NCBI GenBank assembly: GCA_965205425.1
Contig: CBDBGZ010000009.1
Coordinates: forward strand, 320,001 to 384,000
DNA from: Nitrosopumilus sp.
GTDB lineage: Archaea; Thermoproteota; Nitrososphaeria; Nitrososphaerales; Nitrosopumilaceae
Direction: 5' to 3'
Length of the DNA: 64,000 nt
Shown here in pieces: positions 10,688 to 42,279 of the stretch. The position numbers were made by a program, and so were the translations under genes. Below the pieces are notes generated by a model. It ran no database searches and had not been told where the DNA came from. It was given only the letters and a program-made list of their open reading frames with translations. The stretch's first letter is position 1. Each line of letters begins with the position of its first letter.

Positions 10688-11155
10688 TTAAATCATTCTC
10701 CTTACAATAGTGTCAAGTTCTTTATTTTGTCCAAGTACTCCTTTCTGTCCATAAAGTTTCTTGGTACTTCTTTTGAATCCATGTACAGGAGGTGCTAAAG
10801 CAAACCATGGTTTGAGTGGTTTTAATTTTGACAATGTTGCTTTACCTTCAGCCAAAGCTGCTCCCAATTCTGCAGTACTTGAAAATCCTAATTCTTTCAA
10901 ATCTTCAGCAGTTACTTTTTGATAACCACCTTTTCTTGCTTTCTTTTCTAATAGTTCAGTTGCTAAAGATGCGTCAATTTCAACCCAAGAAACATAGTGT
11001 TGTACTTTTCTTAACATTCCCAAAGTATTATCTTTGGCAGGAAGGATAGTTGCACGATATCTTTTGTCTAATTTTAACAAAGTCATTGTAGTGGTTGCCC
11101 AGTATGGACAATCTGCTTGACCTTTTATTCTAACAACGAGATATGCATTTGCCAT
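10688..11155 (-). CDS. rpl30: 50S ribosomal protein uL30
   Basis: LVVRIKG, LAPPVHG; spc operon order. Confidence 0.93.
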   Translation of the reverse strand: MANAYLVVRIKGQADCPYWATTTMTLLKLDKRYRATILPAKDNTLGMLRKVQHYVSWVEIDASLATELLEKKARKGGYQKVTAEDLKELGFSSTAELGAALAEGKATLSKLKPLKPWFALAPPVHGFKRSTKKLYGQKGVLGQNKELDTIVRRMI

Positions 11156-11161
11156 TCTTTA

Positions 11162-11899
11162 TCAACCCTGACTAAATGTCTGTCTTAGACAATCCAATAT
11201 TGCTTTTGAAGTTGAATTCATGGTAGGTGTTGAACCTTTTGCAGTAGTCCATGCATCTTTAAGACCAGCTAATTCCAATAATCGTTTAATTTTACCGCCT
11301 GCTACTAGACCTAATCCACGAGGAGCAGGAATAATTTCAATTGTAACACTGCCACCTTTTCCTTTTACTTTGAATGGTACAGAATGTTTTTGATCACATC
11401 TACATTCCCAACTGCCACATCCCATTTTGATTGGTTGTACGTTTAGGAAAGCTTGACTAGTTGCTTTTTCAATTGCAATTCTCATTTGTTTTGATTTACC
11501 TTGGCCAATTCCCAAGTATCCATTTTCATTTCCTGCTGCAACAATTGCTTTGAATCTAGTTGATTGACCATTTGAAGTCATTTTTTGAATAATACCTACA
11601 TCAACAACTTCACTTTTCAAATCAGGTAACAGTTTCTTAATAATTCCTGATTCTTGAACTCTTAATCCTAATTCAATAATTTCTTCTAATGATGTAATTT
11701 CTCCAGAGTTAACTTTTTGTCCCAAAATAGTTTTTGGAACCCAAACTTCTTCTTCTGGCTCTCTTCTTGGTCTTCTTGGACGATCTTTAGCTCCTCCTGG
11801 TGGGCCTCTTCCATATACTGGTGGGCCTCTTCCACGTTGACCTTGTCCGCCTTGACCGGGTTTTGATTGTCCTGGTTTTGATTGTGCAGTTTGACTCAT
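11162..11899 (-). CDS. rps5: 30S ribosomal protein uS5
   Basis: WVPKTILG, GCGSWEC, PAPRGLGLV. Confidence 0.96.
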   Translation of the reverse strand: MSQTAQSKPGQSKPGQGGQGQRGRGPPVYGRGPPGGAKDRPRRPRREPEEEVWVPKTILGQKVNSGEITSLEEIIELGLRVQESGIIKKLLPDLKSEVVDVGIIQKMTSNGQSTRFKAIVAAGNENGYLGIGQGKSKQMRIAIEKATSQAFLNVQPIKMGCGSWECRCDQKHSVPFKVKGKGGSVTIEIIPAPRGLGLVAGGKIKRLLELAGLKDAWTTAKGSTPTMNSTSKAILDCLRQTFSQG

Positions 11900-11901
11900 T
11901 T

Positions 11902-12384
11902 CTATTTGACCTCACTATCAATTGCAGATTTTATTTTTGAAACTTCATTTTTTACTGTTAAATGTTCACCGTTAATTCTTTCTTCAGCTGGGAATGATTC
12001 TGGATCAGCTGGGACTTGAAGGCCTGCATCAACTAATCCTTTGAGAGCAGCTGCCATTCTTTGAGTAAATCTTTTAGTTCCAGTATACAAAATAGCATCC
12101 TTTGCACCTTTTCCTATTGCCTTCTTACCTGCCAAGTAACCTGTAAGATATGCAGCTGGTACACTTTTTCTAGAACCTTTCCATCCTTTTTCAAGTAGAT
12201 ATCTAGAATGAGCAGAAGCTACAACTTTGTCTCCAGTCATCCCAGGTGTGAGAATTTGGACTTGAGTATTTTCATTAGTAATATTTACAGTGATAAAATC
12301 GCGTTTACCCATCAACATGGTTCCACGTTTTCTATAATTGGTCTTTTCCTCTCTTAATCTTCTTAATATTTTTGAATAGGCCAT
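11902..12384 (-). CDS. rpl18: 50S ribosomal protein uL18
   Basis: RRLREEKTNYRKR, PAAYLTG. Confidence 0.95.
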   Translation of the reverse strand: MAYSKILRRLREEKTNYRKRGTMLMGKRDFITVNITNENTQVQILTPGMTGDKVVASAHSRYLLEKGWKGSRKSVPAAYLTGYLAGKKAIGKGAKDAILYTGTKRFTQRMAAALKGLVDAGLQVPADPESFPAEERINGEHLTVKNEVSKIKSAIDSEVK

Positions 12385-12420
12385 CTATAGAAACCGAGTT
12401 TGAATCTGCTCTTATATACG

Positions 12421-13335
12421 TTAAGCGCGAATCAGAGCAACTAGCAAAGCTTTCTGAGTATGTAGACGATTTTCTGCCTCATCCCATACAACAGATTGTG
12501 GACCATCAATTACAGATGAAGTAACTTCTTGTTCTCGTTTTGCCGGAAGACAATGTAAAAAGATCGCATCTTTTTTTGCAGACTTTAACAATTTGTCATT
12601 TACCTGATACTTTGGCAAGAATTTTTTTAATCTTTTCTTATCAAGATTGTGAATTGATGCGAAGGTATCAGCAACTACTACATCTGCATTTTTAGTTGCA
12701 ACAAAAGGATCAGTTGTTAATTCAATGTTGGTTGTTTTCTTGGCTTCTTTGATGACAGTTTTGTCTGGTTCAAAGCCTTTAGGAGTTGCAATTGACATGT
12801 TTACTCCAGATAAAGCCGCACCGTAAACCATAGAGTTACATACATTGTTACCATCACCAATCCATGCAATTTTTAGTCCCTTGAGTTTTTTCTTTTTTTC
12901 TTTTATCGTCATAAAGTCTGCCAATATTTGGCAAGGATGAAAAGTATCAGATAGTCCATTAATCACAGGTACACTTGCATGCTTTGCTAATTTTTCAAGT
13001 AAATCATGGTCATAGACACGCGCCATTATACAATTTGTATATCGTGAAAGAGTTTTTGCAGTGTCTTCAACTGATTCTCCACGAGATAATTGCATGTCAT
13101 TTGATGATAAATTCACTGCATGTCCTCCTAACTGATACATACCAACTTCAAAACTAACACGTGTTCGAGTAGATGGTTTTTGGAAAATCATTGTTAAGGT
13201 TTTATTTTTTAGGGTTGGTTTGTTTCCATTTTTTTTGAGTTCTTTTTTTAATTTAATAGAGTCATCGATTAATCCTACAAATTCCTTTGGGGCTAGTTCC
13301 GCTAAAGTGAGTAAATCTTTTGTTTTTAGTTTCAT
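12421..13335 (-). CDS. argF: Ornithine carbamoyltransferase
   Basis: STRTR, HPCQ, HCLP. Confidence 0.96.
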
Positions 13336-14723
13336 TTCTTAAAGAATCCGAATCTTCCTCGTTTCTTTTCAGGTTTTTCTTCTTTATCATGTTTTTGTAT
13401 TTCTTCATCTTCAACATCATCTACATCATTGACTTTGTTTGATTCTCCAGGTTTAGGTCGGTCATTTTTAATCCACTGACGAATATTGTTACCAAGATTG
13501 ATTGCATCCTTGTCATTTTCTGGTGGAGTGATTTTAAATAGTTCAGAATAAGTTGTAATGTCATCATCTTTGATTCCATCAAAGGGATCATCAGAAGTTT
13601 GTGTTGGTTCAGGTTCTGGTGTTGGTTCTGGTGTTGGTTCTGGTGTTGGTTCTGGTGTTGGTTCTGGTGTTGGTTCTGGTGTTGGTTCTGGTGTTGGTTC
13701 TGGTGTTGGTTCTGGTGTTGGTTCTGGTGTTGGTTCTGGTGTTGGTTCAGGTTCTGGTGTTGGTTCTGGTGTTGGTTCAGGTTCTGATTCATTAGTTTTT
13801 GTAACATCTACATCATCTAGAGAACCAAAAACTGTTTCTAGAAAAAGTTCCCTATCAAAGGGTTTAAGATCAGGATATTCTTGCCCAACTCCAACATAAA
13901 GTACAGGAGTGGAAGTTACTTTTACAATAGATAAAGCAGCACCGCCTTTTGCATCAGCATCACTCTTTGTTAAAATCGAACCATCAAAATTGACATGTTT
14001 ATGGAATTCACGAGCTTGATTTACAGTATCATTTCCTGCCAATGAATCACCTACGAAAATTTTCATATCTGGGTTTACTACTTTGGTAATTTTTTCAATT
14101 TGCTGCATTAAATTTTCACTTGTCTGCATTCTTCCAGCAGTATCAATTAGCACAACATCTGTTTTGTGAGACTTTGCATATAGTACTGCATCACGTGCAA
14201 CAGCTGCTGGATCTGAATTATAATTTTGAGCAACCAATTTTAGATTAAGTCGTTTAGTATGTTCGCGTAATTGTTCAATTGCACCTGCTCGGAAAGTATC
14301 AGATGCTGCAACAACAACAGAATATTTTGCTTCTTTTAACAGATGTGCAACTTTAGCTAATGAAGTGGTCTTTCCAGTACCATTAATTCCAACAAATAAA
14401 ATCAAAAAAGGTTGTTCTTGTTTCTTTTTTTCATTAATTTTTTCGAAAAGATCAAATTCGCCAGCAGCATCAAACAAAGAAGAAATACTTGAAATTAAAC
14501 TGTCTTTGACAAATTTTTCAATTTCATGCTTGTCTACTTTAGAACCAATTAATTTTTCTTTGAGATCAGATTTAATGGAATCAATAACTTCAGTTGCAAC
14601 ATCAGATTCTAAGAGAGATATTTCTAATTCAAAAAGAATATCTTCAATGTCTTTGTCATTAAGTTCTTTTTCTCCAAGACTTTTCGCTGCATTTGAAAAT
14701 GCACTACGAAGTTTATCAAACAT
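13332..14723 (-). CDS. ftsY: SRP receptor FtsY with C-terminal Pro/Glu/Thr repeat extension
   Basis: [31 protein letters not shown]. Confidence 0.96.
13606..13786. repeat. 12-bp tandem repeat (GGTTCTGGTGTT)n encoding PEPT repeats in FtsY
   Basis: Directly visible near-perfect tandem array with a few GGTTCA variants. Confidence 0.97.
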
Positions 14724-14726
14724 AGA

Positions 14727-15164
14727 TTATCCCGTAGTTGGAGGCTGTGGTGGTTGTTGCATGGCTTGCATCATTTGATTCATCTGTGCTTTTCCTTGCT
14801 CTAATCGTGATGCTGCATCTTGTTTTTTTGCAACAGTATCTTGTAATGCAATTTCAATTTCTTTGATTCTTGCTTCTAGATAATTAATTGCTGAAGGAAA
14901 ATCTTTTTCAACTGCTACTCCTGCACCAATATTCATAACAATCTTTGAGCTAGATGAAATTTTTGTAGGAACATAAGTGCCCATTCCTATTGGAACTAGA
15001 GTTTCAGATTCTGAATTCTTTCCAAGAGATTGAATTGATTGAATTGAAGCAGTTGCTTCTCTTAAAATATTCATGAAGGTGACTTCTCTTTGAGATAAAT
15101 CAGAAAAATATGTTTCAAGCATTTGCATTTGCTGCATTAATTGCTCAGCCTGTTCTTCACTCAT
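14727..15164 (-). CDS. pfdA: Prefoldin alpha subunit
   Basis: ETLVPIGMG, IGAGVAVEK hairpins between coiled coils; adjacent to ftsY. Confidence 0.93.
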   Translation of the reverse strand: MSEEQAEQLMQQMQMLETYFSDLSQREVTFMNILREATASIQSIQSLGKNSESETLVPIGMGTYVPTKISSSSKIVMNIGAGVAVEKDFPSAINYLEARIKEIEIALQDTVAKKQDAASRLEQGKAQMNQMMQAMQQPPQPPTTG

Positions 15165-15264
15165 GTCAACAAACATCTTTCAGATGGTTATAAATTCATT
15201 CATAGGTTTGGAAAAAAATTTAATCAAAATAGAATAAAAAATAGAAAAAAATAAAGATTTAACT

Positions 15265-15885
15265 TTATTTTGCTTTAGAGAATCTAGATTCTACTTCATC
15301 CCAATTTACTACATTCCACCATGCCTCAATATAGACAGGTCGTTTGTTTTGGTAGTTGAGATAGTATGCATGTTCCCACACATCACAGCCAAGTAATGGC
15401 ACTAATCCTTCAGTTCTTGGACTAGTTTGGTTTGGCATTGATTTGTACTCAACCTTTCCTGAAGAAGGATTGTATACTAACCATCCCCAACCGCTGCCTT
15501 GAATTACAGCTGTAGTAGATGAAAATTTCTCTTTGAAGTCAGAAAAGCTTCCAAAGGAATCATTGATTGCATCAGCAATAGATCCTCCAGGTTCTCCGCC
15601 TCCATTTGGTTTCATGTTATTCCAAAATAACCTATGGTTATCATAACCACCACCGTTGAAATTAATTGCACCTCTTTGAGCTTCTGGTATTGAATTAATA
15701 TCAGACAAGATGTCAAGGATATCTTTTTCTTGAATATCAGCAGGACATGTTTCAAGAGCTGCATTTAGTTTGTCAGTGTATGCTTGGTGATGTTTTGAAT
15801 GATGAATCTCCATTGTTTTTGCATCAATGTGAGGTTCTAATGCATCATAAGCATATGGCATTTCAGGAAGAGTGTATTTTCCCAT
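15265..15885 (-). CDS. sod: Fe/Mn superoxide dismutase
   Basis: HHSKHH, DVWEHAYY. Confidence 0.97.
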   Translation of the reverse strand: MGKYTLPEMPYAYDALEPHIDAKTMEIHHSKHHQAYTDKLNAALETCPADIQEKDILDILSDINSIPEAQRGAINFNGGGYDNHRLFWNNMKPNGGGEPGGSIADAINDSFGSFSDFKEKFSSTTAVIQGSGWGWLVYNPSSGKVEYKSMPNQTSPRTEGLVPLLGCDVWEHAYYLNYQNKRPVYIEAWWNVVNWDEVESRFSKAK

Positions 15886-15948
15886 ATACCACATGGAAAA
15901 TTTATTCAATTTATTGCTTTAGTAAGCAATTCATTTTTACTTGTTAGA

Positions 15949-17994
15949 ATGATTAGAAAATTTGTGAAAATATTACTAATTTTCTCATTAACATTAGTAT
16001 TATTTGGAATTTTTATTTTTTCACATTATTTAGAATCAGAAAATGAAATTCACACGTATGTTCAAAGAAGTGTTCCGTTTGTAGGAACTGAAATTCCAAG
16101 ATTAGATGGAATAGATGGTTCAGGGATAAAAATAGCAGTGATTGACACAGGAGTGGATTTCAACCATCCAGATCTTTTTGGATGGGGGCAAGATGGAAAA
16201 GTGATTGGAGGATTTAATTTCATACAAGAAGGCCAACCCCCTCTAGATACTAATGGACATGGGACTCAAGTTGCAGGAGTTATAGCTGCAGATGGAGAAA
16301 TAATAGGCGTAGCACCAAAGGCCAAAATTTTAGCTTACAAAGTTTCCGAAGATGGAGAAGGAGTATCATCAGAGTTAATCATCAGAGCAATTGAGAAAGC
16401 TATAGAAGATGATGCAGATATTATCAATATCAGTTTAGGAGTAAACAAAACAAATTCAAAGATTGAACATGCAGTAAATCTTGCATTAGAAAAAGAAATT
16501 TTTGTAGTAACAGCAGCTGGAAATGATGGACCAGGGTTAGAATCAATTGGAAGTCCAGGAAGAAATTTTGGATCAGTTACAGTTGGTGCAACATATAACA
16601 ATTTGACTTCGAGTTTGGTTGCAACATTAGAAATAGATGAAAAACCATACACAGTAATTCCAATGGTTGGCTCTACAAAATTAGAAGAACCGTTAAGAGA
16701 GAAAATAATTTTTGCAGGTTACGGAAAAGTTACAGATTTTCAAGAACTAGATGTTAATGATGCAATAGTAATTGTTGAAAGAGGAAGTGATGTAGAAGAG
16801 GAGATGTTGTATTTTTCAATCAAAGAAAAGAATGCAGCTGCTGCAGGTGCAAAAGCGATGATTGTTTACAATAATATTCCAGGGATTTTTTTGGGGGAAT
16901 TAGTTCATGAGTTTATAGCGCCAGAATACTCACCTCAAATTCCAGTAGTATCAATTGATAGAGAAGAAGGGCTTGAAATTAAAGAATCACTTTCAGAAGA
17001 CAGTGAGGGAATTTTACAATTATTTTTCAATCCAGATTTTGTTGCACATTTTAGTTCCAGAGGACCAATATCACCATTTTACATAAAACCGGAAATTGTA
17101 GCACCTGGAGCTTACATTAACACCACCCAGAACAATGCAGGATACAACTTTACCAGTGGAACTAGTTATGCTGCTCCTCATGTGAGTGGAGCTGCAGCAT
17201 TATTGCTTCAAAAAAACCCAGATCTTCATCATCATGAAATTAAATCTCTACTACTTACCACAGTTGAGCCTGTTTCTGATGCCTATGGACAAGAATTCTC
17301 CATTCATGAATCAGGTGCAGGTAGATTAGATATTGAAAATGCATACAATGCAAAATTGATCATAGAGCCACCAAACTTTGTAGCTATTACATCATCAGAT
17401 AATAGAATTGTAGAAAAACAATTCCAACTAAAATCAATTGGTGGTTCATGGGATGGTTTTGATGTAACATTTGACGGACCCGAATTTGTAGAGTTTAGTG
17501 GAGAACTCGTAGATAGAGGGATTTTGAAAATTAGGATGAATGTGTTAGAAGACAATTTTGGAGAGCATGAAGGATTAATTATGATAAGTCATGAAGATTC
17601 TCAATACAGAGTTCCATTTTTGTTGCACTTTACACAAGGTTCAATTTCAGTAAACCAACAAAATGAAAAATTATCTTTTGAGATTTATCACCCTGAAGAA
17701 TGGAGCTTTGCAAAAATTTCAGTAATCAATAGTTTTGATGGAAGTACACACACAACAACTACAACACCCCACAAAGAAGCATCAATTGAAGTCTATGAGA
17801 ATTCAGAATATTGGATTGATGCAAAAATTAGAGTTAGCGGTAACACAACAAGTGCATTTAATGTAATTGAAATCAATTCACTTGATGAAAGTCAATCTAG
17901 AATTAACTTTTTAGAAATTCCTGAAAGACAAATACTCATAATCAGCATAGTTTTGGTTGGAATTGCAATTTTTGGAATAATTAAAAGAAGATAA
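15949..17994 (+). CDS. S8 subtilisin-like serine protease with PA domain, membrane anchored
   Basis: IDTG, HGT, SGTSYAAPHV catalytic triad; N- and C-terminal hydrophobic helices. Confidence 0.93.
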   Translation: MIRKFVKILLIFSLTLVLFGIFIFSHYLESENEIHTYVQRSVPFVGTEIPRLDGIDGSGIKIAVIDTGVDFNHPDLFGWGQDGKVIGGFNFIQEGQPPLDTNGHGTQVAGVIAADGEIIGVAPKAKILAYKVSEDGEGVSSELIIRAIEKAIEDDADIINISLGVNKTNSKIEHAVNLALEKEIFVVTAAGNDGPGLESIGSPGRNFGSVTVGATYNNLTSSLVATLEIDEKPYTVIPMVGSTKLEEPLREKIIFAGYGKVTDFQELDVNDAIVIVERGSDVEEEMLYFSIKEKNAAAAGAKAMIVYNNIPGIFLGELVHEFIAPEYSPQIPVVSIDREEGLEIKESLSEDSEGILQLFFNPDFVAHFSSRGPISPFYIKPEIVAPGAYINTTQNNAGYNFTSGTSYAAPHVSGAAALLLQKNPDLHHHEIKSLLLTTVEPVSDAYGQEFSIHESGAGRLDIENAYNAKLIIEPPNFVAITSSDNRIVEKQFQLKSIGGSWDGFDVTFDGPEFVEFSGELVDRGILKIRMNVLEDNFGEHEGLIMISHEDSQYRVPFLLHFTQGSISVNQQNEKLSFEIYHPEEWSFAKISVINSFDGSTHTTTTTPHKEASIEVYENSEYWIDAKIRVSGNTTSAFNVIEINSLDESQSRINFLEIPERQILIISIVLVGIAIFGIIKRR

Positions 17995-17995
17995 T

Positions 17996-19624
17996 CTATT
18001 GGTTGAATTTAGGACCAGCTTCAATAATTTCTGGTGAGACATTTTCAAATTTCTTAAAGTTCTCAACGAACATTTGAGCTAATTTCTTTGCAGACATGTC
18101 ATAGGAATCTTTGTCAACCCAAGTATTCTTTGGATCTAAGATTTCAGAAGGGACTCCTTCTACTTCAGTTGGAATATCCAAGTTGAATAAATCATCATGA
18201 CGATATTTTACAATATCAAGTGCGCCTGAAAGAGCAGCAGTAACCATTGCACGGCTGTATTTGATTTTGATTCTTTTTCCAACACCATATGGGCCACCAG
18301 ACCATCCAGTGTTTACAAGATAAACCACAGTATTGTGTTGGTTAATTTTTTCACCAAGAAGTTTTGCGTAAACTGAAGCAGGTCTAGGCATGAATGGAGC
18401 ACCAAAACACTGAGAAAATACAGATTTTGGCTCTTTAATTCCTCTCTCAGTTCCTGCTAACTTACTAGTATATCCAGACATGAAATGATACATTGCACCT
18501 TCTTTGGTAAGTCTAGAAACAGGAGGCAAGACACCCAATGCATCTGCTGTCAAAAATACGATAACTCTAGGATTTCCACCAACACTTGGAATTACAGCTC
18601 CAGGGATGAAATCTAAAGGATATCCAACACGAGTATTTTCTGTTAATGAGTTATCATCATAATCTGGAACGCCGTCATTTAGTACAACATTTTCTAAAAG
18701 TGCACCAGGTTTGATTGCATTCCAAATTTCTGGTTCTGCTTCTTGGCTCAGATTGATACATTTTGCATAACAACCTCCTTCAAAATTAAATGTCCCGTTA
18801 TCAGACCATCCATGTTCGTCATCACCAATTAATTTTCTATTAGGATCTGCTGAAAGTGTAGTTTTACCAGTACCAGATAGTCCAAAGAACAAAGCAGTAT
18901 CGCCTTTTTCACCAATATTTGCAGAACAGTGCATTGGAAAAATACCACGGTCAGGTAACAAGAAATTCATTACACCAAACATTGATTTTTTCATTTCACC
19001 AGCGTATTCAGTTCCGCCAATCAAAACAATTTTTCTTGTTAAATCAATTAGAATAAAGACATCAGTTCTGGTTCCATCAATTTCAGGGTCTGCTACAAAG
19101 TCATTGATACATAAAATGGTAAATTCAGGTTCGTGTTTATCTAACTCTTCACTTGTTGGACGGATAAACAAATTACTTGAAAACATATTTTGCCAAACGT
19201 GATCATTGATGACTCTAATTGGTAAACGAGTTTCAGGATCTGCTCCTACAAAACCATCAAAAACAAAAAGTTCCTTGTTATCAACAAAGTCTTTCATTTT
19301 TTCAAATAGTTTTTCAAATTTACCACTTGGGAATTGATGGTTAATTTTTCCCCAATCAATAGAATCATGAGTTTTGTCATCATATACAATAAATCGATCA
19401 TCAGGAGATCTTCCAGTGTATTTTCCAGTATCTACTGATAATGAGCCTGTTGAGTTTACAACACCTTCCTTTCTCTCAACTGCCATTTTGACCATATCAT
19501 CCACACTTAGATTTCTGTGGACTTTGGATGGATTGATTCCAAAAGCACCTAATTGTGATGAAAATTTCTCAGTTGCTACAGTACCAAGTACTTGGGTCAG
19601 AGGGTATTGCCTCCAAAAATACAA
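17996..19624 (-). CDS. pckA: Phosphoenolpyruvate carboxykinase (ATP); start uncertain
   Basis: YAGEMKK, GLSGTGKTT, IGDDEHGW, EGGCYAK. Confidence 0.96.
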   Translation of the reverse strand: MYFWRQYPLTQVLGTVATEKFSSQLGAFGINPSKVHRNLSVDDMVKMAVERKEGVVNSTGSLSVDTGKYTGRSPDDRFIVYDDKTHDSIDWGKINHQFPSGKFEKLFEKMKDFVDNKELFVFDGFVGADPETRLPIRVINDHVWQNMFSSNLFIRPTSEELDKHEPEFTILCINDFVADPEIDGTRTDVFILIDLTRKIVLIGGTEYAGEMKKSMFGVMNFLLPDRGIFPMHCSANIGEKGDTALFFGLSGTGKTTLSADPNRKLIGDDEHGWSDNGTFNFEGGCYAKCINLSQEAEPEIWNAIKPGALLENVVLNDGVPDYDDNSLTENTRVGYPLDFIPGAVIPSVGGNPRVIVFLTADALGVLPPVSRLTKEGAMYHFMSGYTSKLAGTERGIKEPKSVFSQCFGAPFMPRPASVYAKLLGEKINQHNTVVYLVNTGWSGGPYGVGKRIKIKYSRAMVTAALSGALDIVKYRHDDLFNLDIPTEVEGVPSEILDPKNTWVDKDSYDMSAKKLAQMFVENFKKFENVSPEIIEAGPKFNQ

Positions 19625-19749
19625 AGTTCAATCCCAGGCTGGTTCATGAGATATTCGATCCGGCCTAAGTTTCCTTATTATCTTTTTCTTATAGGGAATT
19701 TTTTTCTTGTCTAGGAACGTATTTATTCCAAAATTCAAGACTCAATTTC

Positions 19750-20148
19750 ATGACGATCAACAAAGATCTGCTTGCAAAAAGAGAAGAGGTAAAAGCAAAC
19801 AAACCAGATTTTGTCAGACCAGAAAGTTGGCGTTATGTTAGACTTCAAACCAATTGGAGAAAACCAAAAGGTATTGATCATCACCAAAGAAAACAAAAGA
19901 GTAGAGGTCGTCCAGGTCTTGTTAAAGTTGGATATGGTGGACCAAAAGCAGCAAGAGGATTACACCCATCAGGATTTACAGATAACCTAGTTTACAATTT
20001 GAACGATTTAGAAAAATTAGACCCAAAGAAAGATGGAGTCAGATTTGGACACAGTGTAGGAACTAAAAAGAGAAAAGAAATTATCGTAAAAGCAATTGAA
20101 CAAAAATTCAAAATCTTTAATGCAAGAGTGAGTCCAAGTGGTAGTTAA
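19750..20148 (+). CDS. rpl32e: 50S ribosomal protein eL32
   Basis: WRKPKGID, GLHPSG. Confidence 0.96.
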   Translation: MTINKDLLAKREEVKANKPDFVRPESWRYVRLQTNWRKPKGIDHHQRKQKSRGRPGLVKVGYGGPKAARGLHPSGFTDNLVYNLNDLEKLDPKKDGVRFGHSVGTKKRKEIIVKAIEQKFKIFNARVSPSGS

Positions 20149-20593
20149 TCTTAAAGCTAAAAAAAGACTCGCAGCCAGAGTTACTGGTGTCGGAGTTCAT
20201 CGAATTAGATTTGATGCTGATCATTTAGATGACATTGCAGATGCAATTACAAGAGAAAATATCCGAAGTCTCATTACAGCAAACACTATCAAAATTAAAT
20301 CATTTACAGGTACTTCAAGAGGTAGAGCACAAGAAAAGAAAGCTCAGAGAAACAAAAGAGGTACAACTCAAGGTTCCAAACAAGGAAGAAAAGGTGCAAG
20401 AGTTGGTAAAAAAGAAGTTTATGTTGCTAAAGTTCGTTCATTAAGAAGATTATTGAAAATTGCAAAAGACAGAAAGGATTTGACTAATCCTGAATTTTGG
20501 GCACTTTACAAGAAAGTAGGTGGTAACACAGTTAGAAACAAAGCACACCTTAGACTTTTGATGGAAGAAATCAAAGAAAAACGAAAAGATTAG
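20138..20593 (+). CDS. rpl19e: 50S ribosomal protein eL19
   Basis: KKRLAARV, AITRENIR, SRGR. Confidence 0.95.
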   Translation: MVVNLKAKKRLAARVTGVGVHRIRFDADHLDDIADAITRENIRSLITANTIKIKSFTGTSRGRAQEKKAQRNKRGTTQGSKQGRKGARVGKKEVYVAKVRSLRRLLKIAKDRKDLTNPEFWALYKKVGGNTVRNKAHLRLLMEEIKEKRKD

Positions 20594-20889
20594 AATCGAT
20601 AAATTTTATTTTCTAATTCTACAATTTTGCCATTTTGAATTTTAATTCCTTCATCATTTAGCATCTTAGTCTTTACATTTTCTCCATAGGCATATCCACC
20701 AATTTTTCCAGTAGACATTACAACTCTATGACACGGAATAATTACGGGGTATGGGTTTTTGTTCATAATTTTTCCAACAGCTCGTTGACCATTTTTTAAT
20801 CCAACAGCTTTTGCTAATTCCCCGTATGTTGTAATTTGGCCTTTAGGTACTTCAAGTAATTTCTTGTAAATTTTTTGCTGAAGATTCAA
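20590..20889 (-). CDS. ogt: Single-domain methylated-DNA-protein cysteine methyltransferase (MGMT/Ogt family)
   Basis: TYGELA, RAVG, IPCHRV. Confidence 0.9.
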   Translation of the reverse strand: MNLQQKIYKKLLEVPKGQITTYGELAKAVGLKNGQRAVGKIMNKNPYPVIIPCHRVVMSTGKIGGYAYGENVKTKMLNDEGIKIQNGKIVELENKIYRF

Positions 20890-21662
20890 AGTTTGATTAC
20901 CTCAAGATCAGTTTTCTCAAGAAGATCAAGCACTTTTTGTTTATCAGAACCCAATCCTTTCCAATCTAAAAGTGCGACAGTGGCCATTTTGTTTTGTGAG
21001 ATAATATGAGAGAATAGTTGCTCATCAAGATTCTCCAATGCGTGTTTTGGAATTACTGTTCCAAGGGCATATTTTCCTTCAAGTAACTCATTAGTGAATT
21101 TTGAAGGATAGTGAGTTCCACCAAAACAAATTGCTACTGGATTTTCTTTAAGAGAATTAGACATTACTTGATGAACCAAAACAGATACAGATCTACAGAG
21201 AGATTCATCAGTCCATTGTTTGTCAGTAGTTCCAATCTCTATGAATATTGATGGCTTTTTTAACGCAGTTGGACCATGGTGAGTTGCCTCTATAGTAATT
21301 TGAAATTCTGAAAATTGTGATTGGTTTTTCTTTAAAGCCTGAAGATATGCTTTTTGTAAATTAGGATGAGGGATTGCAACTTGTCTGTTATTTCCTCCAA
21401 ACTTTGCTTCTGAGAAATTTCCAGTACTGTGACATGTCAAAGCTAACTGGCCAGATTCGGCAGCATGTTTTGAGAGAAAAACAAATCCATCATAATCATA
21501 TTTTTCTTCCAACCAATCAGCAGAAATTGCAGGTGTTGGAATTATAACAAGATCATAATATTGTCCGTGGAAAATATCTCCATCTTGAGTCATTTCTTTT
21601 GAAAGGAATTTTGCCATATTATGACCTGCAGGGTCATCTTGATACGCAACTAGTAGCTCCAT
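20886..21662 (-). CDS. dtdA: D-aminoacyl-tRNA deacylase (archaeal DTD2)
   Basis: SKH, EATHHGP, FIEIG, GGTHY. Confidence 0.92.
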   Translation of the reverse strand: MELLVAYQDDPAGHNMAKFLSKEMTQDGDIFHGQYYDLVIIPTPAISADWLEEKYDYDGFVFLSKHAAESGQLALTCHSTGNFSEAKFGGNNRQVAIPHPNLQKAYLQALKKNQSQFSEFQITIEATHHGPTALKKPSIFIEIGTTDKQWTDESLCRSVSVLVHQVMSNSLKENPVAICFGGTHYPSKFTNELLEGKYALGTVIPKHALENLDEQLFSHIISQNKMATVALLDWKGLGSDKQKVLDLLEKTDLEVIKL

Positions 21663-21701
21663 GAGATAAGGAATATAAGGACACCTTATCAATTTTCAGC
21701 A

Positions 21702-21875
21702 ATGAACCCTAGGCAGACTTTGAAGAACATGGCCAATACTATGAAAATGGCAAAAAAGCCAGACAGAGATGAGTACTCACAACATCTTAGACTTGTATTA
21801 TTGGGAATAGCAGGAGTAGGAGCTATTGGTTTTACTATACAGTTTGTCTTTTCGGTAATTACGTTTGGTCGATAA
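21702..21875 (+). CDS. secE: Protein translocase SecE (Sec61 gamma), 57 aa; absent from the ORF track
   Basis: MNPRQTLKNMANTMKMAKKPDRDEY...LLGIAGVGAIGFTIQFVF; immediately upstream of spt5. Confidence 0.92.
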   Translation: MNPRQTLKNMANTMKMAKKPDRDEYSQHLRLVLLGIAGVGAIGFTIQFVFSVITFGR

Positions 21876-21877
21876 AA

Positions 21878-22336
21878 ATGTCTGAAGAAATAAAATCACA
21901 TCTATTTGCAATTAGAACCACAGGTGGACAAGAAAAAGTGGTAATGAGATTATTAGAAGCAAAAGCTAATGCAAATCAAATTAACATTCAATCAGTATTT
22001 TGGGTTAGTGATCTAAAGGGATACGTCGTAATTGAGGCAATCAATCCAAGTGATGCATATTTGGCAGTAGAAGGTGTCAGACACATCAGAGGTCAATTAA
22101 GAGGAGAATTAGAATTCAAAGATATTGAAGGATATCTAGTCAAGAAATCAACAGTTTCACAATTAACAGTAGATAATGTAGTAGAAATTACAGGTGGTCC
22201 ATTCAAGGGAATGAAAGCAACAATTACTAGAATTGATGTTGAAAAAGAAGAGGCGACCGTAGTTTTGTTAGATGCATCATACCAATTACCAGTCACAGTA
22301 GACGCCAACTACCTAAAGTTGTCTAGTGAGGCTTAG
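21878..22336 (+). CDS. spt5: Transcription elongation factor Spt5/NusG
   Basis: TTGGQE, KGYVVIE, KOW motif GGPFKG. Confidence 0.96.
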   Translation: MSEEIKSHLFAIRTTGGQEKVVMRLLEAKANANQINIQSVFWVSDLKGYVVIEAINPSDAYLAVEGVRHIRGQLRGELEFKDIEGYLVKKSTVSQLTVDNVVEITGGPFKGMKATITRIDVEKEEATVVLLDASYQLPVTVDANYLKLSSEA

Positions 22337-33360: not shown

Positions 33361-33526
33361 GAAAATATGATGTGATGAGGAACTATAAAGAATTATTCTT
33401 TTTTTGGAACTGGTAAGTTAGCGGGGCATAGCTACAAATCTTATTGCTGGTAAGTGTCGAGGCTTTTAGAAACATTAGGCATTATCACCAAATTTACTTT
33501 ATTAGTGATAATTTCAATAAATATCT

Positions 33527-34078
33527 GTGGGTAAGAAAGAATTACAGGAAAGAGATACTTGGCAAGATAAAAGTGGCCCAAAAGGTGAAGTTGCAGAGGG
33601 TAAATTTGAGATTGTATTTTTACGTGAATTTACAGGTAAGGGTTATGAAATAAGAGCAAAGCCTAAAGAGTTAAGAAAAATATACTCTGAAAAACCACCT
33701 CATGGTGTAATTATTGATTATGCCATAACTAACACTAAAACTCATAAAACATTGTATGTTGAGATCAAAAGACAAGATGGTTATGTTCCTGGGGAAACAG
33801 AACCTAATGCAGGTCGAGGAAATGCACATGAAAGATCATGTAAGTTTTTCACACCAGGATTATTGAAAATCATGCGAAAGTTTGGGAAATTAGATGGTGA
33901 TGTATTGCCTTTTTGGGTTGTATATCAAGGTCGTATTGCACGTGATACAAAACGAACCAATGAGATTACATATTGGTTTGACAAACATAAATCACATTTT
34001 TTCTTATGGAAAAATCCATCAAACACACAATCATTGGTTAATCATTTTAATAAAAATTTGAAACAACTTTTAGATTAG
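33527..34078 (+). CDS. Type II restriction endonuclease, MunI-like (predicted C^AATTG)
   Basis: EIKRQDG, AGRGNAHERSCK.FTPGLLK, LPFWVV and LV.HFN match my recollection of MunI along the whole length; GTG start. Confidence 0.85.
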   Translation: MGKKELQERDTWQDKSGPKGEVAEGKFEIVFLREFTGKGYEIRAKPKELRKIYSEKPPHGVIIDYAITNTKTHKTLYVEIKRQDGYVPGETEPNAGRGNAHERSCKFFTPGLLKIMRKFGKLDGDVLPFWVVYQGRIARDTKRTNEITYWFDKHKSHFFLWKNPSNTQSLVNHFNKNLKQLLD

Positions 34079-34728
34079 GAATTATTCAATACAATATCTA
34101 ATCCCCATGAAGACCAACCTCTAACTTTTTTCCTTGCAAACAATTCGATACGTTTCTGATTTGGAAACATCTTTTCTATTCCGTCCATGACTTCAATTGG
34201 TTTTTCACTGTGTCCTTTTCTTGGAGATTTAATTAATTGTTTAACATTTCTTGCTCCTCTAGGTGTTGGTATTCTTCCATGTTTGAATAATAAACATAAT
34301 TCACAGTTTGAAAGAGTGTATTTGCCAGGATTATGATTCATTTTATCCCATACAAAAGCTACAGTTCTATACTCAAAACCCCATGCCCTGCCTAATTCAA
34401 TAGCTTGTGATAGGTGAGGGTTTGTAGTCCACATGAATAATAGACAATCGTCATTTGTTATCTTGTCTATTGGAATTTCCATCATTTCATTTGTCTTCAT
34501 AGTAGGATACTTGAAACTAGCTGTGCTAATATACAGTGATTTTGATGTATCATACTGTAATTTTTTATTGTAATCCCAGGGTGGGTCTGCATAAATAATA
34601 TCAAATTTCTTGTTGGGTAGTTTTGGATATAACATATCTTTCGGTAATGTGCTGTGTTTTGTTCTTCTCTTAACATCTTCATTGTAAATTGAATAACCGC
34701 TAGGCTTCATTACTTGTTTACTCATCAT
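34075..34728 (-). CDS. MT-A70-family N6-adenine DNA methyltransferase (M.MunI-like)
   Basis: IYADPPW, LFMW, FVWDK, HSEKP, IELFAR; convergent with the REase. Confidence 0.9.
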   Translation of the reverse strand: MMSKQVMKPSGYSIYNEDVKRRTKHSTLPKDMLYPKLPNKKFDIIYADPPWDYNKKLQYDTSKSLYISTASFKYPTMKTNEMMEIPIDKITNDDCLLFMWTTNPHLSQAIELGRAWGFEYRTVAFVWDKMNHNPGKYTLSNCELCLLFKHGRIPTPRGARNVKQLIKSPRKGHSEKPIEVMDGIEKMFPNQKRIELFARKKVRGWSSWGLDIVLNNS

Positions 34729-34940
34729 TCATTACCTTTTTTTCTTGCATTTTTCTTAGAACTCATACTTTTTTGTTTCATCGGAGTAATTATAATTTTC
34801 ATTTCGTTATCGATCACTTCCAAGTTCCATTCCATTTGATCTTTCACTGATAAGCCAAACTGTCTAACGATACTGGCAGGAATTGTAACTCGTAATGAAT
34901 TTGATTTATTTGCCAAAACTAAATTTGTTGTCTCAACCAT
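34725..34940 (-). CDS. AbrB/MazE/SpoVT-type DNA-binding protein
   Basis: SLRVTIPASIVRQFGLSVKDQMEW swapped-hairpin signature. Confidence 0.85.
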   Translation of the reverse strand: MVETTNLVLANKSNSLRVTIPASIVRQFGLSVKDQMEWNLEVIDNEMKIIITPMKQKSMSSKKNARKKGNE

Positions 34941-35013
34941 AACCTATTTCATAACCTGTCATAATAATAACCTATCTCTTGACCTAATGTATAAATAACC
35001 TAAATGATAACCT
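34939..35013. promoter_or_regulatory. Phased ATAACCT repeat array in the divergent abrB/transposase promoter region
   Basis: ATAACCT at 34939, 34951, 34967, 34995, 35007 plus variant TTGACCT at 34979. Confidence 0.7.
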
Positions 35014-35018
35014 ATTCT

Positions 35019-36143
35019 ATGAATCAAAGAGAAATTAGAGGAAAACAAATAGCAGAAAAACAAAATCAAATTATCAAAATAGATGAAACTCATTACAAAG
35101 TAAATTCTCAAAGTAGAAACAAACAACATGACGTTATCTCTTTAGAATCTGGTTGGAGTTGTAGTTGTGAGGATAGATTTTTCAGGAAAACTTGTTGTAA
35201 GCACATTCATGCAGTAGAAATTTCATTAAATATTCATCAAAAGGTAAAAGATGATGTTATAATTTCAGAAGTGGAAATTGATTGTTGTAAATACTGTAAA
35301 TCACAAAATATTGTAAAACGTGGCATACGAAAAAACAAGAGTGGCAATATCCAAGTGTTTAGTTGTAAGAACTGCACACGTAAGTTCTCAATTAACTTAG
35401 GCTTTGAGGGAATGAGAGCAACACCTGATCAAATCACAATGGCAATGAATCTATACTTTAACGGTGAATCATCAAGGAAGGTAAAACAATCCTTGGTTCT
35501 TACTGGTGTTAAAATATCTCATGTTACCATTCAAAACTGGATAAAGAAATACGTCTCACTAATGGAAAAATACCTTTACAAGATAACTCCACAAGTAGGT
35601 GAGCAATGGAGAACAGACGAATTATATCTAAAAATCAAGGGTGATAAAAAATACCTCTTTGCAATGCTAGATTCAGAGACTAGATTTTGGCTGTCTCAAA
35701 TGGTATCAGAACATAAGGGAAATGATGATGTATCTCCAATGTTTGCAGATGCCAAAAAGAAAGCAAAGAAAGTTCCAACTACACTAATTTCTGATGGAGC
35801 TGCAAACTTTCATCATGCTTGGAAAGAACAATACAAAGCCAAAAACTTTCTACATAAAAATACAGAACATCACAGGCACATACACCTATCAGGCGATATG
35901 AACAACAACCAGATGGAATCCTTTAACTCAAACACTCTAAGAGCAAGAGAGAAGGTCGTTAGAGGAATCAAAAAAGATGATTCCTCGATAATCAAGGGTA
36001 TGCAAATTCATCATAATTTCATAAGACCACATCAAGGGTTGAATGGAGATACACCAGCAGACAGATCAGGCATTATTATACAAGGAGATAATAAATGGAA
36101 AACCATAATTCAAAATGCTAGTAACGCCACGAGAGGGATTTGA
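35019..36143 (+). CDS. IS6/IS240-type DDE transposase with N-terminal SWIM and Zn-ribbon domains
   Basis: CSC...CKHIHAV (SWIM); CKYC...CKNC; WRTDE, ISDG, NNNQMES. Confidence 0.88.
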   Translation: MNQREIRGKQIAEKQNQIIKIDETHYKVNSQSRNKQHDVISLESGWSCSCEDRFFRKTCCKHIHAVEISLNIHQKVKDDVIISEVEIDCCKYCKSQNIVKRGIRKNKSGNIQVFSCKNCTRKFSINLGFEGMRATPDQITMAMNLYFNGESSRKVKQSLVLTGVKISHVTIQNWIKKYVSLMEKYLYKITPQVGEQWRTDELYLKIKGDKKYLFAMLDSETRFWLSQMVSEHKGNDDVSPMFADAKKKAKKVPTTLISDGAANFHHAWKEQYKAKNFLHKNTEHHRHIHLSGDMNNNQMESFNSNTLRAREKVVRGIKKDDSSIIKGMQIHHNFIRPHQGLNGDTPADRSGIIIQGDNKWKTIIQNASNATRGI

Positions 36144-36209
36144 ACCCACGTACCCGCAGGGCAGAAGTTTAGGAAACTCCCTGAATTGACCAGACTATCA
36201 GATCGTGAC
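36125..36209 (-). tRNA. Atypical class II tRNA-like gene: serine-like body, anticodon CCT (Arg)
   Basis: GTCACGA/TCGTGGC acceptor, G73, GG in D-loop, GGAGT-TTCCTAA-ACTTC anticodon arm, long variable arm, GTTCAAATCC; one T-stem mismatch. Confidence 0.75.
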
Positions 36210-36490
36210 ATTAGTTAAAATTTTGAAAAGAATAAAAATCCACCTTATCGCCCTGCGGGAGTGATAAGGCTTCATCTTTAGTCTTAATTGTGATTGCAAA
36301 TCACAGGCAAAGACAGAAACCACAAGGCTTGTAATTATAATACTTTAAACATCTAAATAAATAATTTTGGATCTTAGCATCAGTAGGCATGATTAATTTC
36401 TAAAAGCCTCGACACTTACCAGCAATAAGATTTGTAGCTATGCCCCGCTAACTTACCAGTTCCCTTTTTTTAATGTTACAGTTTTTGAGG

Positions 36491-39703: not shown

Positions 39704-41022
39704 CAGTAGATAGGAAAGTGCTCAATTCGGATCAAAAAATAACGATCATTTTCTCAAATTATTCAGATAGAAAAAGCTTGATGGAAGTATGTCACTCCAT
39801 CAAATATGCATTGTACTTCATTTGATACCATGACACACCAAGGTGTAGTACTATCAAAAGCATTTGATATTGTCGCTAAAATAATGTACAATATCTTATT
39901 GTTTCCGTGTTCTGATAAAAATAACTCACGGTTCCACAATGCAGATGCACACAATTCTATCATGTCATTGTGTTTGGGAAATTCATATTCTGAATCTGGA
40001 TTAAAGAGACTGGCAATGGAATCAGATAATGCTTCTCCAACGGGTTTCATGGTTGAGAAAAATTATATCAAAAATATCACAAAAAACAATGCAAATTCAA
40101 TTACATCGTTCACTGGATAGTACCATATCAAAATTACAAGAATTGGGAGTATTGGAGCAACCAGTTACTGTGGCAATTGACAAACATCTAATCCCAAGAT
40201 ATGACAAATTGCCAAACCATTCTTTAATAAAATCAAAATCTAAAAACAGTACTACTCATTTTGAGAGTTACTGCACCATGCAGTGCGTTGAAAAAAGAAT
40301 CAGGGCTCAATTAGGTTGTTATCCTTTGTATGACAACATATCAAATGCCGATTTTGTGCGTAAATTACTCTCTGATGGCATCAATAATGGAATCAAGATT
40401 AAACTATTGCTAGTGGATAGGGAGTTTTTCACAGCTGGAACAATTTCAGAAATAAAACAAAGGAATTTAAAATTTCTAATGCCTGCAAAAAAGAATTCTC
40501 GAATCAAAGATGCCATTTTACAATACGTTAATGGAGATAGAAAGTCAATCTCGCCATACACAATAAAATCATCATCAGGACATGTAGAATCATTTAATCT
40601 AGTTATTCTACCAAACAAAAATGCAAGAAAAAAATCAGATATTATTGATCAGTATGTTGTGTTTGCAACAAACGTTTCACCAAAAGAAATATCTGAAAAT
40701 ATACAGGACATTCCAACTGATTACAAGAAACGTTGGGGGATTGAAACAGGCTATGCATGTGTGGGAAGGTTCAGACCAAAAACCACCAGTTCAAACCAAT
40801 CCATAAGATTGTTGTATTTTTACTATTCATTGATTTTGTACAATGCATGGATAATTGCTAATTTGATTATCTCAGAAGAAACTAATGTACAAAATCACAA
40901 ACCAATAATATCAATTGAAATTCTCAAATATTTCTTTGTAAAGATAATTATTCATTACTTTAGAAATAACAAAAATAATTATTTCCTAGAATGTGTAATT
41001 TGATGTACTTTCCCATCTACTG
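39704..41022 (+). mobile_element. ISH3-family insertion sequence, copy 2
   Basis: Imperfect TIRs CAGTAGATAGGAAAGT / ACTTTCCCATCTACTG; ATAAT at 39699-39703 and 41024-41028; highly similar to 4001-5320. Confidence 0.88.
39806..41003 (+). CDS. ISH3-type transposase split over two frames (39806-40120, 40029-41003; +1)
   Basis: Near-identical to copy 1, with the same frame break. Confidence 0.8.
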
Positions 41023-41133
41023 GATAATGAATCTAATTCATCTATAGTTGCATCTAAAGGCATCTCCATTAAATTAGATAAAAATACAAAGCGCATATCA
41101 GCATAATTTGTTTGTAATACATCTCGCCATATA

Positions 41134-42279
41134 TAGTTTAGGCATATAAATTTTGAATAAACTGTCAAGTATTTTAACTCAAAAGATCTAGATCGTAGAA
41201 TCAATTCATGAAACCATGTCAAAGAGTACAAGACAATCCAAGGTTTCCTCTGGAAATCAATTCATGAAAGGTACAAGCATTAATTTTTTAAGAAAAGTAT
41301 GCAAGAATGAAAAAAATGCAAAAGCAAAGATAAGATTAAAGGCTGCAATACTAAGAAAACAAAATATTCCGTATTCTGTGATATGTGCAAGTCTGGATGT
41401 CATACCATCAACTCTGTCCTACTGGCTAAATCGAATGGATGAAGAGGGAATATCTGCATCACACCGCAAGAAATATTCTGGTTCTAGATGTTTTCTAAAT
41501 GAAAAACAGCTAGTATCATTAAGAAATGATCTAATTTCAGGTCCAGAAAAGTTTGGATTTAACCAATTCATGTGGAGTACAAGAATGGTAATTACACATG
41601 TGAATAAAAAATACAACACCCTATACTCTGCAAGAGGAATGCGTGAATTGCTGCACAGAATTGGATTCTCATCAAAAAAACCACGTCCCACACATCACAA
41701 ATCAGCCTCAAAAGAGGAACAAACCCGTTTTAAAAAAACGCAAAAAGGAGTATCAAAAAATATTCCAAATTGGGACATATCACACTATGTCTGGATGAGT
41801 CAACAAACAAGATAGCACCTAACATAAAGCGCGGATGGTATCTTGCAGGCAATAACATTACCACACCAATTAATTACACTCGAGAAAAATTTCAATCATT
41901 TGGTGCATTGGGGGATGACGGCGTATTTTTTTGTAGGTTCTATGATAAATCAAACACAGACTCATTTCTTGATTTCTTAAAATCCTTGCAGAAACAATTT
42001 GGCAAGAAACTGTTATTATTTGCAGACAATGCATCATACCACAAAAGTGTTAGAGTAAAAGAATTTCTCAAGGTATCAAAAAGAAATGTAATCATAAGAT
42101 ATTTTCCTGCATACACCCCAGAACTCAATCCAATTGAGGTACAGTGGAGAGAAGAGAAAAATGGTAATGCCAATACATTCTTTGTAAATGGAACTGAGAT
42201 GAGAAAACACATGCAGAAGAGATTAGATAATGGAGACGTTCGAGTTGTGAAATTATTCAAATATTTAATGCCTTAACTA
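41134..42279 (+). mobile_element. IS630-family insertion sequence
   Basis: Imperfect TIRs TAGTTTAGGCAT... / ...ATGCCTTAACTA flanked by TA (41132-41133, 42280-42281). Confidence 0.88.
41216..42276 (+). CDS. IS630 transposase, two ORFs joined by a probable -1 frameshift
   Basis: HTH ORF, then DDE ORF (LDES, DNASYH, PAYTPELNPIE); T4A7 run at 41728-41738. Confidence 0.88.

Follow-up and report, generated by a model that had tools for sequence, protein, structure and literature searches.

Why should a transposon carry a tRNA gene whose body and anticodon disagree, next to a short gene complementary to that tRNA? This question is raised by a cargo transposon of 3058 bp at positions 33406-36463 of the 64,000-nucleotide stretch analyzed here (the window; contig CBDBGZ010000009.1, positions 320,001 to 384,000, assembly GCA_965205425.1) from Nitrosopumilus sp., an ammonia-oxidizing archaeon. 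The original prediction had listed a tRNA-like gene and a hairpin segment among the cargo of this element. Both exist: ARAGORN calls a tRNA at 36124-36210 (minus strand, anticodon CCT), and the folding of segment 36230-36330 gives z values of -3.3 and -3.6 relative to shuffled sequences. What had been missed is that they belong together as a tRNA and its complementary RNA. We hold it to be very probable that these two RNAs pair by base complementarity. With moderate confidence, we further propose that they form an RNA-only toxin-antitoxin (TA) module, in which a predicted miscoding tRNA is the toxin and an antisense RNA the antitoxin, and which serves addiction or abortive defense.

The tRNA gene (36125..36209, minus strand, 85 nt) overlaps the last 6 codons of the transposase gene and is of class II, with a serine-type body and the Arg anticodon CCU at 36173-36171. 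It has a 7-bp acceptor stem, a 5-bp T stem, a long variable (V) arm, G73, G1-C72, G30-C40, and U20, and its T stem shares a U.U pair with the host tRNA-Ser(GCU). The main serine determinants are the V arm and G73, and archaeal seryl-tRNA synthetase (SerRS) uses G73 and G30-C40; serine identity is independent of the anticodon, and tRNA-Ser with a changed anticodon mistranslates (PMC9976931). Because SerRS ignores the anticodon, the cargo tRNA is predicted to put serine at AGG codons, which occur at 3.7 per 1000 codons in long open reading frames (ORFs). The host has a separate intron-bearing tRNA-Arg(CCU) elsewhere in its genome.

Upstream of the tRNA, on the same strand, lies the gene of a predicted small RNA of ≈85 nt (36232..36315, minus strand; ends approximate), consisting of two predicted hairpins (hairpin 1, 36314-36281; hairpin 2, 36269-36243) and then oligo-T. 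The apex of hairpin 2 (36250..36259) is an exact 10-nt complement of the V arm of the tRNA (36153..36162), which sequence comparison marks as the antisense target; the helix reaches 11 bp with one G.U pair. A candidate archaeal TATA box, TATTATAA (minus strand, 36335..36342), can be read from the sequence ≈25 nt before the small RNA, and the same TATA-like motif is present at loci L025 and L054. A sigma-70 promoter scan, which uses a model not applicable to archaea, stayed at shuffle level. No Rfam family covers the small RNA at E≤1. A pattern built on hairpin 1 matches in 4 of 319 genomes, each time beside such a tRNA or a disrupted copy of one, and was not found in viral contigs.

Pairing between the two RNAs is indicated first by an orthologous module. 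At locus L354, where the tRNA has anticodon UCU and adjoins the 3' end of a transposase of the same family and a Pycsar pair, 4 of the 10 V-arm bases are changed relative to ours, and precisely their 4 counterparts in the antisense element are changed as well, so that no pair is broken. The acceptor, D, and anticodon stems of this tRNA also co-vary, and one T-stem pair is broken. The disrupted copy, with anticodon UCG, follows the L354 pattern. Complements to their own arm were likewise found for the long-arm tRNAs of L025 (UAU, 13 nt), L054 (UAA, 13 nt), L260 (UGU, A73, 14 nt), L295 (UAU), and L226 (CAA, 9 nt), and L025, L054, L260, and L226 are located in or at the end of elements of the same transposon family. 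At L025, L260, and L295, the anticodon arm has a complement too, placed relative to the first in an order that could not arise from a single inverted copy.

We then asked how such complements are distributed over the tRNA genes of the same genome. Each of its 59 tRNA calls was assigned to a class solely from identity elements, a rule that flagged 13 tRNAs as mismatched; one of these, a tRNA-Tyr on contig C6, is an ordinary gene with an intron and was counted among the controls. The remaining 12 comprise 7 alanine bodies (G3.U70/A73) with Phe, Leu, or Asp anticodons and 5 long-armed tRNAs. Exact flanking complements of at least 10 nt accompany 7/12 mismatched tRNAs, compared to 0/47 ordinary ones (maximum, 9 nt). 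The seven alanine-body tRNAs (G000:C2:54916, C4:165846, C4:166055, C8:191679, C9:254430, C9:454069, and C9:711260) each have a partner of ≈45 nt, in which a complement of the anticodon arm and a hairpin are followed by oligo-T, and most of these modules adjoin other insertion sequence (IS) elements.

A held-out search gave a similar picture. A model built from 8 alanine-body tRNAs without their flanks was used to search 106 genomes of the genus and 151 genomes of the phylum, and the best matches were taken; the counts that follow include kin and are not independent. Among 30 alanine-body loci with foreign anticodons (29 distinct tRNAs), an exact complement of at least 10 nt is present at 21, and a helix of at least 12 bp with at most 2 G.U pairs covers the anticodon arm at 26. 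None of 41 true tRNA-Ala control loci reaches 10 nt; one doubtful tRNA-His call did. Outside the family, the phylum-wide search returned only ordinary tRNAs among the loci examined, with a sensitivity too low to show absence.

These comparisons bear on the reading in which the complement is a product of chance or a relic of local duplication, and the tRNA an inert passenger. Such relics do occur: L409 simply consists of half a tRNA duplicated in tandem, which we did not count as a module, and a single 10-nt match is an event of about 1%. However, the compensatory changes at L354, the controls at 0/47 and 0/41, and the two-site partners at L025, L260, and L295, whose order one inverted copy cannot give, all argue against it. 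So do the types of base pair in 38 of 39 modules, 14 of which had been chosen earlier for having a complement. Their non-Watson-Crick pairs comprise 16 G.U, 0 A.C, and 4 others under an alignment score that treats G.U and A.C alike, and pairing at the level of RNA is therefore indicated. We regard the chance or relic reading as largely refuted and give it hardly any remaining probability. In cofolding calculations, the cognate partner had the best energy in 10 of 15 rows; duplex energies calculated over whole flanks were dominated by long spurious helices.

The layout of the modules suggests what sort of RNA the partner is. Oligo-T follows the partner within 60 nt in 33 of 38 modules, compared to 27% of random windows. 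Partners on the opposite strand lie upstream in 20 modules and downstream in 2, and those on the same strand lie downstream in 12 and upstream in 4 (the type found here). One could suppose that complement and tRNA share one precursor RNA, in which the complement would be a cis-acting leader that serves as a folding switch or processing aid, with no separate antitoxin. Here and at L354, L025, and L054, the complement does precede the tRNA on the same strand, at a distance of 20-40 nt, and read-through could join the two. But with the same hairpin and oligo-T design, 12 complements lie downstream and 22 of 38 lie on the opposite strand, where the partner must act as a separate molecule, and we therefore give the leader little credence. 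Still less probable is a role of the small RNA in guiding modification of the cargo tRNA, as a box C/D or H/ACA RNA: anticodon-arm complements of 10-20 nt resemble guides in length, but box D (CUGA) follows the element in none of the 38 modules and box C precedes it in only 1, and the target here is the V arm.

A separate antisense RNA would fit the following scheme. SerRS would charge the cargo tRNA, serine would enter at AGG codons, and the proteome would be damaged. The small RNA, transcribed from its own TATA box just upstream of the tRNA and ending in oligo-U, would kiss the loop of the V arm and zip up the 11-bp helix, masking the main serine determinant and so blocking folding or charging. 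It would be made in excess and be the less stable of the two RNAs, and the tRNA would come from read-through or a weak promoter; type III toxIN operons offer an analogy for this arrangement. Upon loss of the element or shut-off of transcription, the small RNA would disappear and the toxic tRNA would be freed, so that the host would become addicted to the element, or virus infection would be aborted, or both, beside the RM (restriction-modification) pair that the element also carries. In related modules, the bodies are of the alanine type (G3.U70) and the anticodon arm is the target. The mobile part, which the sequence itself shows, consists of a single transposase that acts on GG ends of ≈50-70 bp, duplicates 8 bp of target, and moves whatever sits between. 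We lean toward the more general view that archaeal mobile DNA carries a whole class of such RNA-only TA modules, each made of a translation-competent, miscoding tRNA with a Ser, Ala, or Leu body and a foreign anticodon, and of a short anti-tRNA RNA that pairs with its V or anticodon arm, here guarding a transposon and its RM genes or aborting virus infection. All mismatched bodies that we saw are of Ser, Ala, or Leu type, whose determinants lie mainly in the acceptor stem and variable arm and not in the anticodon (PMC9976931). A variant in which AGG miscoding silences the transposase itself was rejected: there are 3 AGG codons in the transposase gene, 2 in that of the methyltransferase (MTase), and 0 in that of the restriction endonuclease (REase), and without clear enrichment in the genes of the element, self-silencing is unsupported.

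Several observations weigh against the TA interpretation. Taken alone, a match of 10 nt arises by chance in 0.9% of random windows of 300 bp; the argument is therefore a comparative one, and its covariation count comes from 2 sequences. The tRNA and small RNA described here are predicted to bind weakly (-3 kcal/mol), and the cognate partner ranks below the best of the 15 compared, in a method that does not cover loop-loop kissing. The module is present in only ≈4 of 76 elements bounded by terminal inverted repeats (TIRs), which implies that the transposon family can do without it. A nearby complement is absent for 4 other long-arm mismatched tRNAs of this genome and for L020, L024, L030, L056, and L194, and such tRNAs can therefore exist without a cis antidote. 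The Rfam tRNA model misses the tRNA gene, with only an 18-nt T-arm match at E≤1. Finally, the anticodon keeps C35 and U36, which together with G73 is compatible with charging by arginyl-tRNA synthetase (ArgRS).

The last point admits another role, in which the tRNA is charged with arginine and decodes AGG as a spare, nuclease-resistant or stress-induced species, with the small RNA tuning its level only. C35, U36, and G73 are as in the host tRNA-Arg, and Arg anticodons (CCU, UCU, and UCG) are found in each of the three closest homologues. By contrast, the V arm is long, and position 20 is U rather than the A of the host Arg tRNAs; A20 has a role in recognition by ArgRS. Moreover, the host already has a tRNA-Arg(CCU), and the sister G3.U70 bodies with Phe, Leu, Asp, or Ile anticodons cannot be spare isoacceptors. 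We consider the spare decoder improbable.

The miss by the Rfam tRNA model also speaks for a tRNA-like RNA that works outside translation, as a decoy or trigger that sequesters a synthetase or feeds or activates a defense nuclease, with the antisense RNA as its off switch. In some modules (L003, L100), the anticodon loop has 8 nt or stems are weak, and modules adjoin defense cargo, such as the Pycsar pair at L354. A transposon-linked allo-tRNA(UAU) is inactive in translation, and two variants of it kill cells (Mukai et al., PMC5389517). Against this, the cloverleaf is maintained by compensatory changes, and ≈45 modules pair Ser, Ala, or Leu identity with a foreign anticodon, a combination that is needed for miscoding and not for a decoy. 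We judge such a decoy unlikely, and continue to favor a miscoding toxin under antisense control.

Further mismatched or unusual tRNA genes were noted in the course of these searches. The long-arm tRNAs without a nearby complement (G000:C8:120792, C9:254931, C9:901280, and C9:1042184; L020, L024, L030, and L056) form a distinct class with anticodons for Phe, Ile, or Gly, and several have in common a GTTTAT...TTTAAAAAGTTTC tract on their downstream side. A genome-wide search for distant partners of the long-arm Phe and Gly tRNAs returned only scattered 13-mers, at chance level. Two long tRNA-like genes with extended arms (L194:8162-8262 and L119:1349-1442) adjoin transposases of the family and have no detected partner, L119 being cut by a contig end. 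Two tRNA-like genes with 8-nt anticodon loops, L003:6153-6225 and L100:2747-2820, also lie by family transposases and could be +1 frameshift suppressors; the partner helix of L100 is 22 bp with G.U pairs. A search with a T-arm pattern returned mostly ordinary tRNA-Leu and ordinary phage tRNAs, the only relevant hits being the gene described here, L287 (which is the L054 module), and L295.

Among known systems, the tRNA most resembles allo-tRNAs, whose Ser- or Ala-identity bodies bear foreign anticodons (UAU, Arg, Asp, Phe, Leu) and which are found near transposon genes and TA loci, one overlapping a transposon ORF (PMC5389517; PMC7609411). By its sequence features, the tRNA combines serine identity elements with a non-cognate anticodon, as allo-tRNAs of Ser or Ala identity do. 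They differ in being bacterial and in having 8/4 or 9/3 acceptor branches, in contrast to the archaeal 7/5 tRNA described here, and the main text of Mukai et al. 2017 lacks the words "antisense" and "complementary" and describes no cognate RNA partner (PMC5389517). Natural miscoding tRNAs are also represented by tRNA-ProX of Streptomyces and Kitasatospora, which is toxic when expressed in E. coli and when its expression is constitutive; our tRNA is predicted to share the miscoding, whereas tRNA-ProX has proline identity and a ProRS-paralogue neighbor, and the main text of its description lacks "antisense," "small RNA," and "mobile" (PMC10404621).

RNA-RNA TA systems are classed as type VIII, of which only creTA and SdsR-RyeA are listed as validated (TADB 3.0, PMC10767807). 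CreT sequesters a host tRNA and CreA works via CRISPR Cascade, and creTA is proposed to addict cells to a defense system; the toxin SdsR is a small RNA whose gene lies opposite that of its partner (PMC10767807). Like these, the module described here has adjacent, predicted RNA partners, which in its class lie on the same or opposite strands, and whose interaction is suggested by complementarity and covariation. Unlike these, its putative toxin is the tRNA itself, its antitoxin would pair with it through a short complement that is encoded separately, and proteins are not implicated. Neither validated RNA-RNA TA system uses a tRNA as toxin. Our literature searches, with most subscription journals outside their scope, found no paper on a tRNA neutralized by its own dedicated antisense RNA, and the module appears to be a new kind of system. 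If the interpretation holds, programmed mistranslation would be a toxin mechanism, "extra" or mis-annotated archaeal tRNAs would be explained, the proximity of allo-tRNAs to transposons and TA loci would become testable by a simple search of flanks, and a switchable miscoding cassette of ≈200 bp would be available as a genetic tool.

The transposon that carries the module has the ends that the original prediction assigned to it. Its left (33406..33472) and right (36397..36463, minus strand) TIRs start with GG and are 100% complementary over 67 nt, and each contains the 9-mer CTGGTAAGT twice, at positions 5-13 and 42-50, a spacing of 37 bp. The duplicated 9-mer may provide tandem binding sites for the transposase. 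The 8-bp target-site duplication CTTTTTTT also stands as predicted, abutting the left (33398..33405) and right (36464..36471) ends of the element; its low complexity makes it weak evidence alone, but exact duplications of 8 bp flank 53 of the 76 relatives in which a TIR pair was detectable. Empty sites, proposed originally as a check, are found in relatives. When the element and one 8-mer were deleted in silico and the joined flanks aligned to 9 relative loci, 6 loci aligned across the junction without a large gap and 3 reached one side only, but the exact CTTTTTTT was kept in none; the T-rich target is similar and not identical because the relatives are other species, at 68-81% identity.

Public sequencing runs gave further support. 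All 4 runs examined (3 studies) span the left junction with no difference and agree fully with the RNA region where they cover it, which is entirely in 2 and partially in 2; the best-matching run may be the source sample. A sister element, present in 3 runs, has a different stretch of 239 nt in place of 276 bases of the 3' slot that holds the RNA module. This swap, and the differing cargo of the 76 TIR-bounded relatives, bear out the predicted single-transposase element with exchangeable cargo. The tRNA gene is full length and internal to the TIRs, and we rejected the possibility that it is the remnant of an attachment site. Judged from its sequence, the element is a real, recently inserted, intact IS6-related unit transposon. 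A lone right end of this element (G000:C7:96090-96228; 96% identical over 139 bp, including the TATA-like box) sits ahead of a host gene, for which it could supply a promoter.

The transposase (35004..36143, plus strand; 379 aa, likely start Met7) has a SWIM-type Zn finger, a 4-Cys Zn ribbon, an HTH (helix-turn-helix), and a DDE domain. In an alignment of 36 homologues, C53/C55/C65/H67 of the SWIM-type finger, C95/C98/C121/C124 of the ribbon, and D205/D264/E305 are invariant, in agreement with the predicted SWIM/Zn-ribbon DDE assignment, but the Pfam SWIM score of 14.9 is below the cut-off of 19.6. PF13610 matches at 56 bits (cut-off 27). The best NCBIfam model is IS6, at 113 bits under a curated cut-off of 125, and the closest named element is the clostridial IS6 member ISCpe7 (33% over transposase residues 115-364). 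An AlphaFold model gave a low-confidence catalytic domain (mean pLDDT 66.5), with no Foldseek match at E≤0.001.

Likeness to IS6, noted originally for the GG ends and the 8-bp duplication, extends to the type of transposase, the GG tip, and the 8-bp duplication, and fails at repeat length, size, and NCBIfam cut-off; for these three reasons we do not file the element as an ordinary IS6 member. IS6 elements have a DDE/HTH transposase, GG-tipped inverted repeats of 15-20 bp, 8-bp duplications, and a body of ≈0.8 kb (maximum, 1.76 kb), and one passenger-carrying member is listed, ISDsp3 (Varani et al., 2021, PMC7986276). The element shares with the long Zn-finger clade h of IS6/IS26 (ISCpe7) a DDE_Tnp_IS240 domain, the HTH, an N-terminal CxxC zinc finger, and the 8-bp duplication (PMC7986276). 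It differs in its 67-bp TIR (≈50-70 bp in the family) with a repeated motif, its extra SWIM-type finger, and the size of the family's elements, which measure 2-10 kb and enclose passenger genes between a single pair of ends. IS6 tips combine GG with cTG(T)/cTGTt and caaa motifs (PMC7986276). The tip here has GG and CTGG rather than CTGT and lacks the caaa motif, and 54 of 76 relatives have CTGT under a search rule that itself imposes GG-NN-YTG. We conclude that the element is IS6-related and IS6-like in its working, a variant form within a known IS6-related group that carries cargo. We infer that it may transpose by IS6-like copy-in.

Transposase relatives at E≤1e-40 occur in 122 of 268 genomes of the host's family, and 1972 protein relatives were found. 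Relatives occur in records titled Nitrosopumilus and Nitrosotalea but also in records titled Bathyarchaeia and other archaea, so that the family, originally suggested to be thaumarchaeal, is not confined to that group; only 2 weak matches were found in viral contigs. The GG-NN-YTG rule yielded a TIR pair for 76 of 202 distinct transposase loci, and many of the others lie on short contigs or are short loci. One of the 76 (L105) comes from a genome flagged as unpublished (G117), and the 268-genome tally also includes some such genomes, on none of which the claims about the RNA module rest. The 76 elements are 2.0-10.2 kb long (median, 3.4 kb) with a median TIR of 51 bp, and a subterminal 9-mer recurs within the TIR in 53 of them, at 28 or 37 bp, compared to 5/76 in controls. 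Cargo differs among elements. Pfam scanning of 94 of 164 cargo ORFs gave 32 methyltransferase, restriction, or HNH proteins, 5 proteasome-like proteins, and 1 each of KwaB, CAP12-TIR, and cyclase; 47 had no match. The proteasome-subunit-like proteins, which we take to be Anbu-like, recur at L222, L236, L253, L117, and L266. Thaumarchaeal IS-like elements have been described as units of one or two genes, in a main text without "SWIM," "AbrB," or "tRNA-like" (Krupovic et al., 2019, PMC6563490), and no paper on this transposon architecture was found in our literature searches, which did not extend to ISfinder or subscription journals.

The protein cargo was also as predicted, with a REase, an MTase, and an AbrB-type gene recognized by matches to Pfam, PDB 1d02, and PADLOC. 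The REase (33527..34078, plus strand, 183 aa) is a type II enzyme and a homologue of MunI (PF11407, E 3e-49; PDB 1d02, E 2e-50 over its full length; PADLOC REase_II). Convergent with it is the gene of a type II adenine DNA MTase of the MT-A70 family (34075..34728, minus strand, 217 aa; PF05063, E 4e-25; PADLOC MTase_II, E 3e-64). The adjacency of a MunI-like REase and an adenine MTase marks a MunI-type RM system. M.MunI is itself of MT-A70 type, and the MunI site is CAATTG; RM pairs are themselves addictive. The pair here thus shares with the MunI system a full-length homologue of the solved REase and an MT-A70-type MTase, and differs in being inside a transposon, convergent, and with an AbrB-type gene ahead of the MTase. 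The predicted site, CAATTG, is not depleted in the genome (ratio 1.11), as would fit a recent arrival of the RM pair.

The gene of the AbrB/MazE-type DNA-binding protein (34725..34940, minus strand, 71 aa; PF04014, E 2e-8) is coupled to the start of the MTase gene and divergent from that of the transposase, and has relatives in 12 of 75 other elements. Between abrB and the transposase gene lie six W-R-ACCT-R heptamers (34940..35014), a candidate operator array; none of 20,000 random 100-nt windows of the genome exceeds 4 copies. Similar repeated hexamers occur 5' of the transposase gene in L260 and L159.

Other members of the transposon family are present in the same genome. One (G000:C9:294316-299979) has perfect 74-bp TIRs, an exact 8-bp duplication, a transposase 54% identical to that described here, and, by the look of the translations, two methyltransferases and a probable REase of 514 aa as cargo. 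Distant members are nested at G000:C9:~535-12850, with a copy at C8:~14500-22140, and at C8:84401-85750; their apparent cargo comprises a type III RM system, a cytosine MTase, an HATPase, and a response-regulator-like gene. The presence of one block on two contigs may reflect an assembly overlap (genome contamination 5.2%). In other genomes, L167 and L168 are identical elements of 2582 bp with their flanking 8-mers swapped (A..B / B..A), a cointegrate-like pattern. At L376, just after a tRNA at 1501, a gene-less inverted-repeat unit of ≈60 bp has ends that match the family TIR and is a candidate miniature inverted-repeat transposable element, with a similar one in L009. Elsewhere in the window, 40029-42276 holds a DDE_Tnp_1 transposase and a split HTH and DDE element, IS630-like by its look, with many copies in the genome.

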